A stretch of 38,185 bases of DNA, from the NCBI GenBank assembly GCA_034439715.1, contig JAWXAY010000022.1, positions 1-38,185 on the forward strand, written 5' to 3'. A program made the translations under genes and the position numbers. The notes under the pieces are model-generated. The model did not search any database. It was not told the origin of the DNA and saw only the letters and a list, made by a program, of their open reading frames with translations. The stretch is from Pseudomonadota bacterium. Lineage in GTDB: Bacteria > Bdellovibrionota > Bdellovibrionia > Bdellovibrionales > SG-bin7. This document shows, piece after piece, positions 22,434-28,167 of the stretch (positions are counted from its first letter, which is position 1; each line of letters begins with the position of its first letter).

Positions 22434-23078
22434 ATGAAAAAGAAAACTCTAGTTATTGTATTTCTGGCTTGGATTATGGTGGGGTTTCGCATTTATTCCA
22501 GCAGCAACCCCTGGAATATTTCAGTCTCCGCTCCCCGACTATGGGTTAAGTGGTGTGCGACTTATCCCGTTGGCACAAATGATTTAGACAGCAGTGACCC
22601 CCTCTTTAGCCAGGCTCCCACTTTTCAACAGGTGGTGGATTCCATCTACAATGATTATAATCAAGTACCTGGTTCGTACGTAGAACTTTACGATGCTGCG
22701 ACGGATCCGACTTACAACGCCTCAGCAGGCGCCGAACATACGATTGATATTTGCCTCGCCAGTTTAACTGTGCTGGGAGGAAAGGCTCGCCCCACATTTA
22801 ATGGAGGTAAGATCGTAGCTTGTGATATCGTTTTGTCTCCAAAGACTATTGAAAAGCTAAGTGGATTTGTCCGCACTGTGACCCATGAGATAGGGCACTG
22901 TCTGGGGTTCGATCATCCCCAAGAAATTACTCATTCCGTAATGTCTTATTTTGCTCCCTCAAGTTTTAGGCGTCTGCAAGTCGATGACAAAATGGGGCTA
23001 GTCTATTTATATCCCGTTGATCCCAATAGTGGAAAAGAAAAATCCACCTTCGGGCTGAGCTGTTCTCCCTCCGAATAA
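22434..23078 (+). CDS. Matrixin-like (M10/metzincin) metalloprotease
   Basis: HEIGHCLGFDH, Met-turn SVMSY, LQVDDKMGLVYLY and GAGGA SD. Confidence 0.88.
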   Translation: MKKKTLVIVFLAWIMVGFRIYSSSNPWNISVSAPRLWVKWCATYPVGTNDLDSSDPLFSQAPTFQQVVDSIYNDYNQVPGSYVELYDAATDPTYNASAGAEHTIDICLASLTVLGGKARPTFNGGKIVACDIVLSPKTIEKLSGFVRTVTHEIGHCLGFDHPQEITHSVMSYFAPSSFRRLQVDDKMGLVYLYPVDPNSGKEKSTFGLSCSPSE

Positions 23079-23163
23079 AAATTCCGAAATAGAGATTTTA
23101 ATCCTTTTAAATCCCCTATAGAGAGTTTTCCCTTTGATCCTCACATTGCATGATGAATTCTCT

Positions 23164-24024
23164 ATGGACTTTAAAGACTTATTAGCCGCACTTTCTTGCT
23201 TTTATCCCTTAGACTATGCTCGCTTTTGTCACCTAGTTAATAGGGATGAAGAAAAAATTTCTAAACTTATTCCTAATTATCCTATTTTCATCGAAAAAGC
23301 CAAGGTGGCTCTCGAGTCCTTGAGTCAAAGAGGGATCTCATGGATGCACCCGTTTTCAGTTCAGTATCCCCACTATTTATTGTACATAAATGAGCCGCCC
23401 GTTTTCTTAACCTACCGTGGAAGTCCCACTTGGCTTAAGTTTAAAACACTATCAGTCGTCGGCAGTCGTCAGCCCAGCACCATTGGAATTTCGTGGTTAG
23501 AAGAACACTTAAGTTCCTTCGTAAAAAAAACACCCCGAGTAATCGTAAGTGGGGCCGCTCGGGGAATTGATCAGGTGGCGCACTCAGTGGCGCTGAGAAA
23601 TGGTATTCCTACTATTGCATTTCTGCCTTCGGGCATTGATAATTTTTATCCTCGTGATTTTAAGTACTGGTTACCTGAAATTATTGAAACAGGTGGGGCC
23701 GTTATCTCAGAATATTTGCCCGATCAACCAATGTTCTCCCGTCACTTCCATCGACGAAACAGATTGATTGTTGGACTCTCTCAACTTCTTCTGGTGGTAG
23801 AAGCTAAGCGCCGAAGCGGCTCTAGAATGAGCGCTGGGCTTGCATTGAGCTCGGGTCGTGATGTGGCAGTAGTGCCAGGCTCTCCGCTTGATCCTCAATA
23901 TGGCGGAAACCTCGATCTGCTTTATGATGGCGCCCATCTCGTACGCGATGCCGAGGATCTCAGTTTCTTAGTAAATAATAAGATTTACGAATTTGAGCGC
24001 CAAAAATCGTTTCCTCTAATGTAA
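23164..24024 (+). CDS. dprA: DNA-processing protein DprA (Smf)
   Basis: PPVFLTYRG, VVGSR, VSGAARGID, VISEY, FHRRNRLI and VVEAKRRSGS motifs; start uncertain (23134 or 23164). Confidence 0.92.
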   Translation: MDFKDLLAALSCFYPLDYARFCHLVNRDEEKISKLIPNYPIFIEKAKVALESLSQRGISWMHPFSVQYPHYLLYINEPPVFLTYRGSPTWLKFKTLSVVGSRQPSTIGISWLEEHLSSFVKKTPRVIVSGAARGIDQVAHSVALRNGIPTIAFLPSGIDNFYPRDFKYWLPEIIETGGAVISEYLPDQPMFSRHFHRRNRLIVGLSQLLLVVEAKRRSGSRMSAGLALSSGRDVAVVPGSPLDPQYGGNLDLLYDGAHLVRDAEDLSFLVNNKIYEFERQKSFPLM

Positions 24025-24915: not shown

Positions 24916-25398
24916 TCAAAAGTAGAAACGGGCGCCAATGCCAGCACCAATATCAGTTGAAGTATTGGGATAAATGCGAAGGCCCGGAACTAATTCTGCA
25001 AAGAGTCCAACCGGAAATTCTCGGGGTAGCCACTCAATTCCTACAGGAACTCTGAAAACTAAGCGCATCGAATTGTCGTCATTGCTTCTTCGCTTGTCAT
25101 TTTCATCTGAGTACAATTTAATGAGTCCACCTAAACCGATATAGGGCATTAACTTGGCGCCATGTCCGACGTTAGCCAGCCACTCTGGGTAATGAAAGAG
25201 ATAGTCGGCAAAAACTAAGAGATTGCTGCCGGAATCCCAACCCAAACCCATATCGATTGCCCTTTTACTTTCAAGCCAATATTTCCCGCTAATAGCAGAA
25301 GGATCTCCCAAAACAATACCTGCACCAAAAGTGCTAGAGGCCGATTTTGCAGAGACAGAACTTAAAATAAAAAATAAAAATATGATATTTCTTTTCAT
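24916..25398 (-). CDS. Outer-membrane beta-barrel protein (DUF3996-like)
   Basis: Signal peptide, GAGIVLGDPSAISGKYW, RVPVGIEW, LFAELVP and C-terminal GARFYF. Confidence 0.85.
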   Translation of the reverse strand: MKRNIIFLFFILSSVSAKSASSTFGAGIVLGDPSAISGKYWLESKRAIDMGLGWDSGSNLLVFADYLFHYPEWLANVGHGAKLMPYIGLGGLIKLYSDENDKRRSNDDNSMRLVFRVPVGIEWLPREFPVGLFAELVPGLRIYPNTSTDIGAGIGARFYF

Positions 25399-25610
25399 GC
25401 CATAAAATCGTGTTTGCGAACAGTTTTTCGACCGTTTACTTTAGCGCGAGTAGCTGCCTGGTCCAGTAACCAGTATACGAAATCGTTTAATCCCTTCAAA
25501 GCATCTCCGGCAGTATTGCAGCCACTTTTTTTGAGCTTCGCTTTTATTTTGCTGCTGATAACTAACATATCACCTGATTTTTTGCTTTTTTGGTTTTTTT
25601 TCTGCGCCAT
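25395..25610 (-). CDS. Bacterial histone-fold protein with Lys-rich N-terminal tail
   Basis: LVISSKIK (alpha1), NTAGDA (L1), long alpha2, then RAKVNGRKTVRKHDF carrying the histone L2 RKT and R...D clamp; AAGGGAG SD 6 nt upstream. Confidence 0.9.
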   Translation of the reverse strand: MAQKKNQKSKKSGDMLVISSKIKAKLKKSGCNTAGDALKGLNDFVYWLLDQAATRAKVNGRKTVRKHDFMA

Positions 25611-25635
25611 CTTTTGCTCCCTTGTTATTTATGGA

Positions 25636-25644
25636 ATCTTAACA
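25636..25644 (-). promoter_or_regulatory. Possible internal extended -10 promoter for the histone gene
   Basis: Minus strand TGTTAAGAT in the 42-nt AT-rich gap upstream of the histone. Confidence 0.35.
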
Positions 25645-25652
25645 ATATAGAA

Positions 25653-25955
25653 TTACTTTTTTTCTGTAAACCCTAATTTTATTGCCTTACTTAAATCTTT
25701 TTGGCTAATTTCAAAGACATTTAGACGTCCAGTTTTGCCTCCACAAACAGCAGCATACATCTTGCCGTCGTCCTGTTTACTTTTCGAATAAATCTTTATC
25801 CCCAGAAGTTCCTTCGCAGTCTGATCTAATGAGATCCCTGAATTATTTTCGCACTGTTTGCTATTGTCTGGTTTAAAAATAAGTACGTTCGGATCTGTCC
25901 CGCCAGCAAACCCTAGCGAACTCGAAAGAATAGATATGGCTAGAATTTTAATCAT
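25653..25955 (-). CDS. Small secreted hypothetical protein with two Cys
   Basis: Signal peptide, SKQC and AAVCGGKTG; overlaps the upstream gene by 8 nt. Confidence 0.75.
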   Translation of the reverse strand: MIKILAISILSSSLGFAGGTDPNVLIFKPDNSKQCENNSGISLDQTAKELLGIKIYSKSKQDDGKMYAAVCGGKTGRLNVFEISQKDLSKAIKLGFTEKK

Positions 25956-27054
25956 GAATATTTACCGCAAAAAGATTGGCTTCATTCGAAATAAAATAAA
26001 CTCGATTTTTCTTCTCATTTACTAAAGGAGTAGCAATTATTCCTCTTCCCGAAAAAAACCGGGTTAACAACTTTCCATCAGACGACCGACGAAGCTCCAA
26101 AGGACCATCTGAGATCCCTATTACTAAGTTTCCTTTGTAGAGCACAGGTTGCGTGGCGATTCCGTCGCCCATCTCCACTTGCCAAATTAATTTTCCTGAA
26201 TTTAAATCTAAGGCTACAGTTTTTCGGGTCGTCGTCGAATACAACACAGTATTGTCAATTACCGTGGGCGGCAAATAGCCTCCCTCTTCAAATTTCCACA
26301 ACGATTGGCCAGATTTAATATCAAGACAGTAAAGATTTCCATCAAAGCTCGATACTAAAACCTTTTCTCCGACTATTAAGGGTGTCGAGTCGACATCCTT
26401 AAACCGTTTATTAGTATTGAGCAATTTTTCCCAAATGAGTGTGCCATCAGAAACATTAAGCGCAACTAAATACCCGTCAGCTGTGCCCACATACAATTGT
26501 TTTCCAACAATCACTGGGGTCGAGGAACCTCGAACCGAGAAAAAAGAAGGGGCCTGGCGACTGTAGGACCAAATGAGATTTCCTTTTTCTTTCCCTAGTG
26601 AATAGAGGACGTTATTGCCAGCCAAAAAATAAATTCGATCTTGCGCCACTAAAGGCGCCGAAAACACCTCTGATGGCAGGGTGAAACTCCAAATTAATTT
26701 GCCGTTTTCCGCCTGAACGGCATAAAATTTACCGTCATTACCTCCGAAGTAGGCCACATCCTTTTCAACAGCAACGCCGCCCTCAACTCCACCACTAACC
26801 AAGAACTTCCAGATGACTTGGCCATCTTCAGTATTATAAGCAGTGAGACTATCAATGCCATTGCCCTGAAGTAGAATTGTCTTGTAAAGTGCCGGTTGCA
26901 TGCGGTTAGCTAATCTTTGCTTAAAGTAGCCTTCTGTTTGAGTGGATCTTACCCAATAAGCCGACATAGTGGGCTCCGTTTTAGGTGGCTGCACCTTTAA
27001 CATGGCACAACCGAGAAACAAGAATAAACTACTCAAGAAAAACGCTTTTTGCAT
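25948..27054 (-). CDS. bamB: PQQ-like beta-propeller lipoprotein, BamB-like
   Basis: Lipobox FLGC and repeated A-x-x-x-x-x-G-x-x-x-W blades; lies directly downstream of a yfgM-like gene, the usual arrangement. Confidence 0.8.
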   Translation of the reverse strand: MQKAFFLSSLFLFLGCAMLKVQPPKTEPTMSAYWVRSTQTEGYFKQRLANRMQPALYKTILLQGNGIDSLTAYNTEDGQVIWKFLVSGGVEGGVAVEKDVAYFGGNDGKFYAVQAENGKLIWSFTLPSEVFSAPLVAQDRIYFLAGNNVLYSLGKEKGNLIWSYSRQAPSFFSVRGSSTPVIVGKQLYVGTADGYLVALNVSDGTLIWEKLLNTNKRFKDVDSTPLIVGEKVLVSSFDGNLYCLDIKSGQSLWKFEEGGYLPPTVIDNTVLYSTTTRKTVALDLNSGKLIWQVEMGDGIATQPVLYKGNLVIGISDGPLELRRSSDGKLLTRFFSGRGIIATPLVNEKKNRVYFISNEANLFAVNIHD

Positions 27055-27084: not shown

Positions 27085-28167
27085 CTAACCATTAGGCTGA
27101 GACTTTCCTAACGACAGAATTCGCTTAAATTTATCGGCATTCTTGACGGCACTAGACGATTTTTTTTCTCTGGTTGCCTGTTCGATTTTATCCAACTCGG
27201 ACTGCGCTGCTTTATCGACAAGACTAACCGAACGCAAATCTTCACTTGTTAGCTTGTTAAGAACGGTCTCTGTAATATCCGCGTGTTTGGGAACAAGAAC
27301 TTCTCCAGTGCTAGAGCTAACTATGTTGGCGGCAACTCTTTTCTTCAAGATAAGTCTTTTTATCTTTTTAATACGCTCATCTTCAATGCCTTCGGAACCG
27401 TTCTTAGAATAGATATCTAGAGCCTTGTCTGGCATCGACAGCGTTTCATAACAAACAGCCATTTTTAAATTGGCATCCCCGTGAAGAAATCCCAGTTTTT
27501 CGTCTTGAATAATTTTCTGCCAAGTCTCAACGGCTTTACTGCAATCTTGGGCGTCTGCATATATTTGTCCCAGTCGCATTTGATAGAGGCCCGACAATAA
27601 ATTATCCTTTTTGGTATCAAGCCCTGATTGAGTCAAAATTATTAGGGCTTCTTCTGGCTTCTTAGCCTCAGAAAGTATTTTGGAGAGATAAAGTGACGAC
27701 ATGAGCGCCGCATTTGATTTGGGATATTTTACAATTACGGATTTAAATTCAATCACATTTTTACCATGGTCTTTTTCAAAATCACCCGTTGGCAGCTTGG
27801 CCCGTTCAGCTTCTAGCTCTTTTTGCTTTTCAGTAACTTGCTTAAGCGCATTATTTTTTTTATCTTTTTTAATGCTTTCAATGGACGATTCCAGAGTTTT
27901 TATCTTCGCTTTGGCTTTTTCAGTTTCTTCTTGGGACTTAACATAACTCCGCTCAGCAACGAAATAAGATTCCTGGGCTGTTTGCTCCATTTTTTGCCGC
28001 TGCCAATTCATTAAGGTCCATGCTAAACCGACACCAAACGTCAATACTCCAAGAGCATATATGGCTTTCATATAGGGTTTCATAGATAAAAGAATTTTAT
28101 CAACTACCTGAATGAATAAATCCGGTTTTCTCGCTTCTTTGTGCATTTGTTTATCTTGCTTAGACAT
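27085..28167 (-). CDS. YfgM-like membrane-anchored TPR protein with an unusual C-terminal insertion
   Basis: KEARKPDLF N-terminus, single TM, TPR helices and position upstream of the bamB-like gene. Confidence 0.8.
   Translation of the reverse strand: MSKQDKQMHKEARKPDLFIQVVDKILLSMKPYMKAIYALGVLTFGVGLAWTLMNWQRQKMEQTAQESYFVAERSYVKSQEETEKAKAKIKTLESSIESIKKDKKNNALKQVTEKQKELEAERAKLPTGDFEKDHGKNVIEFKSVIVKYPKSNAALMSSLYLSKILSEAKKPEEALIILTQSGLDTKKDNLLSGLYQMRLGQIYADAQDCSKAVETWQKIIQDEKLGFLHGDANLKMAVCYETLSMPDKALDIYSKNGSEGIEDERIKKIKRLILKKRVAANIVSSSTGEVLVPKHADITETVLNKLTSEDLRSVSLVDKAAQSELDKIEQATREKKSSSAVKNADKFKRILSLGKSQPNG

Follow-up and report, generated by a model that had tools for sequence, protein, structure and literature searches.

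The window, that is, the whole 38,185-nucleotide stretch of DNA that was analysed, carries on its reverse strand, at 25395..25610 with the stop codon included, a gene for a 71-aa protein that its open reading frame, its homology to PDB entries and an AF2 model mark as a probable face-to-face (FtF; HLp-type) alpha3-truncated bacterial histone. The frame opens with an ATG, its protein begins MAQKKNQKSKKSGDMLVISSK and ends NGRKTVRKHDFMA, and the complete protein sequence is MAQKKNQKSKKSGDMLVISSKIKAKLKKSGCNTAGDALKGLNDFVYWLLDQAATRAKVNGRKTVRKHDFMA. With 14 lysines and 3 arginines against 5 aspartates and no glutamate, the protein has a net charge of +12 and a pI of 10.3, and a Shine-Dalgarno sequence, AAGGGAG (25617..25623, reverse strand), precedes the ATG of Met1 by 6 nt; the first-pass annotation of this DNA, which had described a basic 71-aa ORF with a good Shine-Dalgarno sequence, was accurate on both points. 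Codons 1-13 (25572..25610, reverse strand) encode a lysine-rich N-terminal tail, MAQKKNQKSKKSG, with a net charge of +5, in which all five lysine codons are AAA and acidic residues are absent. Codons 14-71 (25398..25571, reverse strand) encode the histone-fold core, as delimited by an ungapped phmmer alignment of query residues 12-69 to residues 8-65 of the 9qt0 chain.

An in-frame stop codon lies 6 codons upstream of Met1, which makes Met1 the sole ATG, GTG or TTG start ahead of the methionine at position 15. Just upstream of the gene, a promoter-like element, TTTACA-17-TATTGT (25642..25670, reverse strand), matches the consensus only, at 9 of 12 positions, and as a promoter scan of the region returned 12 sites compared with 7.4 ± 3.1 in shuffled sequences, this site is regarded as weak. 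Contigs from three DNA runs (X3, X5 and X6) span the entire ORF with 0 mismatches and 0 indels, also across the A-rich codons of the tail, and those of a fourth run (X4) break at 25601/25608, inside the A-rich start, with the reservation that all four runs may stem from one campaign. An assembly artefact in the A-runs was rejected on account of the agreement of the X3, X5 and X6 contigs across the ORF, and a chance ORF was rejected given the existence of 83 homologous protein clusters and a phmmer match to a solved histone at an E value of 1.2e-11.

The gene downstream of the histone gene (24916..25398; PF13161, E 4.9e-5) encodes a DUF3996 protein of 160 aa with a signal peptide, and upstream follow, as context, orf100 (25653-25955), a BamB-like gene (25948-27054; PF13360, E 2.7e-53) and a TPR/YfgM-like gene (27085-28167; TPR_21, E 3.7e-4), all on the reverse strand. 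The histone stop codon and the DUF3996 start codon overlap in the sequence ATGA (25395-25398), so the two genes are probably co-transcribed, and the BamB-like gene overlaps orf100 by 8 bases (25948-25955). Read from the sequence, these overlaps suggest a single translationally coupled run of envelope genes with the histone gene inside it. Three same-family genomes share the order TPR/YfgM-like, BamB, orf100, histone, DUF3996. At the 16 other loci searched, not one of these four neighbours turned up (0/16), and the neighbourhood reported for Leptospira, comprising SMC, methionine aminopeptidase and DUF350 (Hu et al. 2025, PMC12701072), was not found around the window gene. As the order is confined to the window's own family, the conserved neighbourhood was rejected as a functional link, and the gene order is read as a lineage-specific placement. 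The window's forward strand, opposite to these genes, also carries a DprA gene at 23134-24024 (DNA_processg_A, E 4.5e-60) and a gene for a small secreted M10-like metallopeptidase at 22434-23078, and two same-family relatives likewise have both genes next to their histone locus.

Pfam and NCBIfam scans of the ORF returned no families up to an E value of 10, and the curated cut-offs of PF00808 (CBFD_NFYB_HMF) and of the NCBIfam histone models were not reached; this miss is a limit of those models and no argument against a histone fold. Among PDB chains, phmmer identified the Leptospira perolatii histone HLp (9QT0) as the best solved relative, with an E value of 1.2e-11 over the ungapped alignment of residues 12-69, and returned HBb/Bd0055 at 2.8e-4 (8CMP) and 3.2e-4 (8FVX). 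A profile of 35 homologues gave 3.6e-18 for HLp, 3e-11 for HBb, 2e-6 for the archaeal FtF histone HTkC (9F2C) and 4.7e-4 for a Methanopyrus histone-fold protein. Depositors of PDB entries call relatives of the protein "DUF1931 domain-containing protein" and "CBFD_NFYB_HMF domain-containing protein". The AF2 model, with a mean pLDDT of 83.7, has helices at residues 19-28 and 35-58 and a one-turn helix at 67-70, and its best Foldseek match in the PDB was 9qt0_A (TM(target) 0.95, rmsd 0.6 Å, 47% identity), followed by HBb (33-34% identity, TM(target) 0.85-0.90) and HTkC (25% identity). All of the first 8 matches were alpha3-truncated histones, namely HLp, HBb or archaeal HTkC, and nucleosomal and eukaryotic histones ranked lower; both AF2 and Foldseek give the alpha1-L1-alpha2-L2 fold with alpha3 cut to about one turn that is expected of an FtF histone. 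The histone fold proposed in the first-pass annotation is therefore borne out by phmmer, AF2 and Foldseek alike, and its impression that the core is closer to the Leptospira or FtF type than to Bd0055 agrees with both the single-sequence and the profile E values.

FtF histones have been defined by a predicted torus tetramer, with R48, N52, R54, T56 and D61 as the most conserved positions of their sequence logo, whereas bacterial dimer histones lack R48 and N52 and yield no confident oligomer above the dimer (Schwab et al. 2024, PMC11390915). In the HLp tetramer, R49, S52 and N53 pack against F63, T61 and R55, and R55 and D62 form an RD clamp (Hu et al. 2025, PMC12701072). With an ungapped alignment and a native HLp length of 63 residues, HLp residue n corresponds to window residue n+6. 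Window residues R55, N59, R61, T63 and D68 are the FtF logo residues R48, N52, R54, T56 and D61, all five invariant in 35/35 homologues, and HLp R49, N53 and R55 and the R55-D62 clamp map onto these same window residues. The RxTxxxxD motif of the L2 loop and RD clamp, a hallmark of FtF histones, is thus present and invariant as R61/T63/D68, and F69 (HLp F63) is near-invariant, at no less than 90%, in the 35-sequence alignment. Two of the six HLp interface residues are changed here (S52 to V58 and T61 to H67). The dimer-dimer pair R48 and N52 is present as R55 and N59, where a dimer histone would have neither residue, and the HBb orthologue of the same genome, which serves as an internal control, has G and D at the two FtF tetramer positions, matching the published rule for bacterial dimer histones.

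A four-copy complex prediction scored 0.91 (runs of 0.91, 0.90 and 0.91) compared with 0.15 for the best control, on a scale calibrated on two copies, not four, whose mark was reached by 20/30 proteins solved as one-chain pairs and by 1/23 solved as single chains. This model reached a contact agreement of 93% or more, with a partner pLDDT of 85 or higher. The scored copy makes handshake contacts with one neighbour and meets a second neighbour through residues 51, 54-55, 58-59, 65, 67 and 70-71, an interface of the HLp type, so that the model forms the closed tetramer that defines FtF histones in Schwab et al. 2024. The predicted interfaces begin at residue 14, with residues 14-18 in the dimer interface and zero tail residues in any. 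As similar tetramers have been solved (9QT0 and 9F2C), the prediction shows likeness to these and may come from model memory. The Foldseek and AlphaFold oligomer comparison called for in the first-pass annotation has thus been run, with HLp as the best match and both a handshake dimer and a tetramer predicted. From its sequence and these models, the window protein is filed here as a bacterial FtF histone of the HLp group, not as an HBb-type dimer histone.

The core also carries much of the HLp surface for DNA. Residues S20, K21, K23 and K27 of alpha1 and T33 and G35 of L1 are assigned DNA-contact roles by alignment to HLp, and 8/11 of the HLp DNA-contact residues named are identical here (HLp S14, K15, K17, K21, T27, G29, T57 and R59). 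The altered contacts are A13 (S19 in the window histone), T56 (K62) and K54 (G60), the last of which is a persistent DNA contact in published simulations of HLp (Hu et al. 2025, PMC12701072). The same study showed for HLp, the only such histone for which this has been done, a tetramer in solution that wraps about 60 bp; it reports that the tetramer binds DNA with no preference for sequence, and the N-terminal 6-7 residues of HLp are invisible in its crystals.

Tail length was measured as the number of residues before the conserved acidic residue, which is D14 in the window histone. The five lysines in 13 residues counted in the first-pass annotation were confirmed, and with a charge of +5 and pLDDT below 50 at residues 4-10 in the AF2 model, the tail has the disordered, basic character by which eukaryote-like tails are recognised. 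In two overlapping samples, both picked by similarity to the query, the median tail length was 7: the 83 homologous protein clusters ranged from 2 to 28, with four tails longer than the 13 residues of the window histone (14, 17, 20 and 28), and the 73 loci that could be parsed among the best 80 of 465 loci in species-representative genomes ranged from 5 to 26, with 12/73 at 13 or more. The seven loci dropped from the best 80 had no ATG-Ala start, six of them reading Val-Ala-Lys at a GTG, which is the same start, and one reading MSKKK. Given the range of 2-28 and the median of 7, the tail of the window histone is long yet within range. Tails of 9 and 11 residues occur in same-family relatives and one of 7 in a same-order relative (L090), and five further distinct same-order relatives (among L091-L097, with L096 unparsed) have K/T/A-rich tails of 19-26 residues. 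In several long-tailed relatives, the conserved L1 sequence GCNT reads VNV, and two distant representatives (P0092 and P0098) have tails of 30-34 residues with AKK-type repeats that resemble the basic repeats of linker histones.

A net positive charge was found in 73/73 parsed tails, an SD-like motif precedes the Met-Ala start in 72/73 parsed loci, and the Met-Ala start itself is invariant in 35/35 aligned homologues. That Met-Ala and lysine-rich codons stay in frame despite tail lengths of 2-28 implies selection on the translated tail, and by this comparison of sequences the tail is judged to be translated from Met1. The positive charge of the tail is constant and its length and sequence are free to vary, which fits a role in bulk charge better than a code that is read. 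The lysine-rich tail of the window histone is therefore real, but it is a common and published trait of the FtF family: tails of bacterial FtF histones have already been described, and archaeal FtF histones are reported to be generally without them (Schwab et al. 2024, PMC11390915). The novelty that the first-pass annotation implied for the tail was overstated, since a net positive charge is common to all the parsed tails and 12 of the 73 match or exceed this one in length. A literature search over titles and the beginnings of abstracts returned nothing on what bacterial FtF tails do or whether they are modified.

The closest named relatives, at 69% identity, come from metagenome-assembled genomes titled Bdellovibrionales or Proteobacteria. 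Alongside the 83 homologous protein clusters, 465 loci were confirmed in species-representative genomes, and the titles of the best 80 of these include Bdellovibrionota, Myxococcota, Elusimicrobiota and Planctomycetota. A search against 1.84 billion 50%-identity representatives returned 325 matches at an E value of 0.001 or better and 40 at 1e-10 or better. Some histone-fold match was found in 37 of 40 relatives from the same family or order, and 11 of the 40, including 3/3 of the same family, had an FtF-type match at 1e-18 or better. In three same-order genomes (G014, G033 and G040), the matches were of intermediate strength (40-42% identity, E 1e-12 to 1e-13) and had one stop codon within the matched N-terminal part; these may represent a shorter-tailed or divergent third group. 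As a separate observation, about 36 of the best 150 of the 50%-identity representatives align to the window histone twice, being tandem FtF-type doublets of 114-268 aa, most of 117-150 aa (P0084-P0089, P0091, P0093 and others), and in P0084, P0085 and P0087 the R...N.GRKT signature appears in both halves; Schwab et al. 2024 (PMC11390915) use the word "doublet" in their main text nowhere but in the reference list.

The window genome, which is 95.7% complete and probably belongs to Bdellovibrionota, has three histone-fold genes, namely the FtF histone of the window, an HBb orthologue and a ZZ-type histone. The HBb/Bd0055 orthologue (L002:1483-1707 on contig C11, forward strand) matches 8CMP at an E value of 2.7e-25, and the N-terminus of its open frame, MNMEGTEAAEGG, is acidic or neutral, unlike the basic tail of the window histone. 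The ZZ-type histone of 143 aa (L003:1495-1926 on contig C29, reverse strand) has a C-terminal HBb-like fold (8CMP, E 2.3e-11) and a Cys/His-rich N-domain with C4 and C2H2 groups (CxxC, CxxxxC, CxxxC and Hx5H). As read from its sequence, this architecture fits published ZZ histones, and the Pfam ZZ model gave no match to the protein at an E value of 0.01. Three HU/IHF genes (L084, L085 and L086, on contigs C33, C6 and C75) score above the curated cut-off of PF00216. With the HBb orthologue, the ZZ histone and three HU/IHF genes beside it, the window histone is one of several chromatin proteins of this genome. Schwab et al. 2024 (PMC11390915) count Bdellovibrionota as one of the phyla that have FtF histones and place the FtF histones of this phylum in class Bacteriovoracia and its dimer histones in class Bdellovibrionia, whereas the window genome and several relatives carry both types.

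Among characterised systems, HLp (L. perolatii, 9QT0-9QT2; the L. interrogans orthologue is LA_2458) shares with the window histone the one-turn alpha3, the R/N/R residues of the tetramer and the RD clamp (Hu et al. 2025, PMC12701072), as well as a short disordered N-terminal extension. The two differ in the number of residues before the conserved acidic residue (13 in the window histone, 7 in HLp), in the C-terminus, where HLp ends at Phe and the window family adds two residues (MA), and in L2, where the window histone reads RKT (K62) against RTT in HLp and has Gly at the position of HLp K54. Leptospira is also reported to have a single histone and no HU (Hu et al. 2025), in contrast to the three HU/IHF and two further histone-fold genes of the window genome. 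HBb/Bd0055 of Bdellovibrio bacteriovorus (8CMP, 8FVX and 9EZZ), probably from the same phylum, has in common with the window histone the alpha3-truncated fold, the GRKTV L2 loop and a similar size, but is only 33-34% identical, and its true orthologue in this genome is the gene at L002. The torus tetramer and the logo residues are shared with archaeal HTkC (9F2C) and the FtF family at large (Schwab et al. 2024, PMC11390915), with 25% identity to HTkC. Eukaryotic and Asgard tailed histones likewise have a disordered, positive N-terminal extension before the histone fold; compared with these, the window tail is much shorter and has no conserved sequence across homologues, and the core is predicted to form a closed homotetramer in place of a nucleosomal superhelix.

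Three other readings of the gene were weighed against this assignment. The window protein could instead be a dimer histone like HBb/Bd0055 that bends or coats DNA and does not wrap it as a tetramer, and HBb is indeed a significant match by phmmer, profile and Foldseek (E 2.8e-4, E 3e-11 and TM(target) 0.85-0.90, respectively), of a type that is usual in the organism's group. In addition, the window histone keeps the RKT motif with an invariant K62, which Schwab et al. 2024 (PMC11390915) report for bacterial dimers and nucleosomal histones but do not call strongly conserved among FtF histones. Nevertheless, HLp outscores HBb by seven orders of magnitude, R55 and N59, which dimer histones by definition lack, occur here and in every aligned homologue, the four-copy model places a dimer-dimer interface at exactly these residues, and the genome encodes its true HBb orthologue in a separate gene (E 2.7e-25), so that a dimer histone is an improbable identity for the window protein. 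A second reading concerns the tail, which would not be made, in whole or in large part, if translation began at Met15 (ATG at 25566..25568, reverse strand) and a tail-less 57-aa histone were the only product or the major isoform. The first-pass annotation had thought such an isoform conceivable because AGGTGAT directly precedes this ATG, although with short spacing, and both the motif and the short spacing are as described, the gap between GGTG and ATG being 2 nt, whereas the well-spaced AAGGGAG serves Met1. Among the 73 loci, the equivalent position holds Pro (43 loci), Met (24), Val (3), Ser (2) or Ala (1); the methionine thus recurs in a minority, mostly in Bdellovibrionota- and Myxococcota-type sequences, but no SD-like sequence was seen before it in the relatives that keep it, and with Pro in 43/73 the isoform finds no comparative support. 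The in-frame persistence of Met-Ala and lysine-rich codons across all tail lengths and the place of residues 14-18 in the predicted dimer interface also argue against it. Met15 is accordingly read as an ordinary structural residue at the point where the fold starts, and we regard a start there as very improbable.

The third reading accepts the tail and is compatible with the preferred one, but makes the tail a regulatory platform, either through reversible lysine acylation or through a free N-terminal Ala, exposed once Met is removed, that is read by, for example, the ZZ-type histone. It draws on the invariance of Ala2 (35/35), on the lysine-rich and disordered nature of the tail and on the Cys-rich C4 and C2H2 N-domain fused to a histone fold at L003:1495-1926. 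The freely varying length and sequence of the tail speak instead for bulk charge, and Met-Ala-Lys starts could just as well stem from a preference at the second codon of highly expressed genes, which counts against a regulatory tail. Frames of 140 aa or more, a crude proxy for ZZ-type histones, occurred in 6/12 genomes with an FtF-type match at 1e-18 or better (the G000 frame included) and in 10/26 genomes with only weaker matches, which is no clear association. Schwab et al. 2024 (PMC11390915) raised the idea of ZZ histones binding tails and judged it unlikely, since the binding-pocket residues are not conserved and the tails have no conserved sequence. Taken together, regulation through the tail seems unlikely, and the bolder picture in which a co-encoded ZZ histone docks on an H3-like free N-terminus (Ala-Lys/Gln-Lys) and the three histone types form an interacting, possibly acylation-regulated chromatin system must be considered improbable and distinctly speculative.

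The best explanation, which we hold with high confidence from the sequence, the structural models and the analogy to HLp, is that the gene encodes a nucleoid-associated, HLp-like FtF alpha3-truncated histone whose tail starts at Met1. Two chains are predicted to form a handshake histone dimer, and two such dimers would assemble into a closed tetramer by contacts of R55, N59 and R61 in a surface made up of the alpha2 C-terminus, L2 and the one-turn alpha3. By analogy with HLp, this tetramer would bind DNA without sequence preference through alpha1, L1 and L2 (S20, K21, K23, K27, T33, G35, T63 and R65) and may wrap roughly 60 bp of DNA. Translation from Met1 would give each tetramer four disordered 13-residue tails of +5, whose likeliest role would be to add non-specific electrostatic contacts, either to neighbouring DNA or to the DNA where it enters or leaves the wrap.

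Finally, the feature is ordinary for the bacterial FtF family: it adds one member from an uncultured lineage and leaves knowledge of that family unchanged. The window histone, and still more its same-order relatives with tails of 19-26 residues, would be convenient material for comparing such histones with and without their tails. In combining HLp-type tetramer, HBb-type dimer and ZZ-type histones with HU/IHF in one genome, this organism is a clear example of a combination that prompts one to ask how a single nucleoid accommodates several types of histone.
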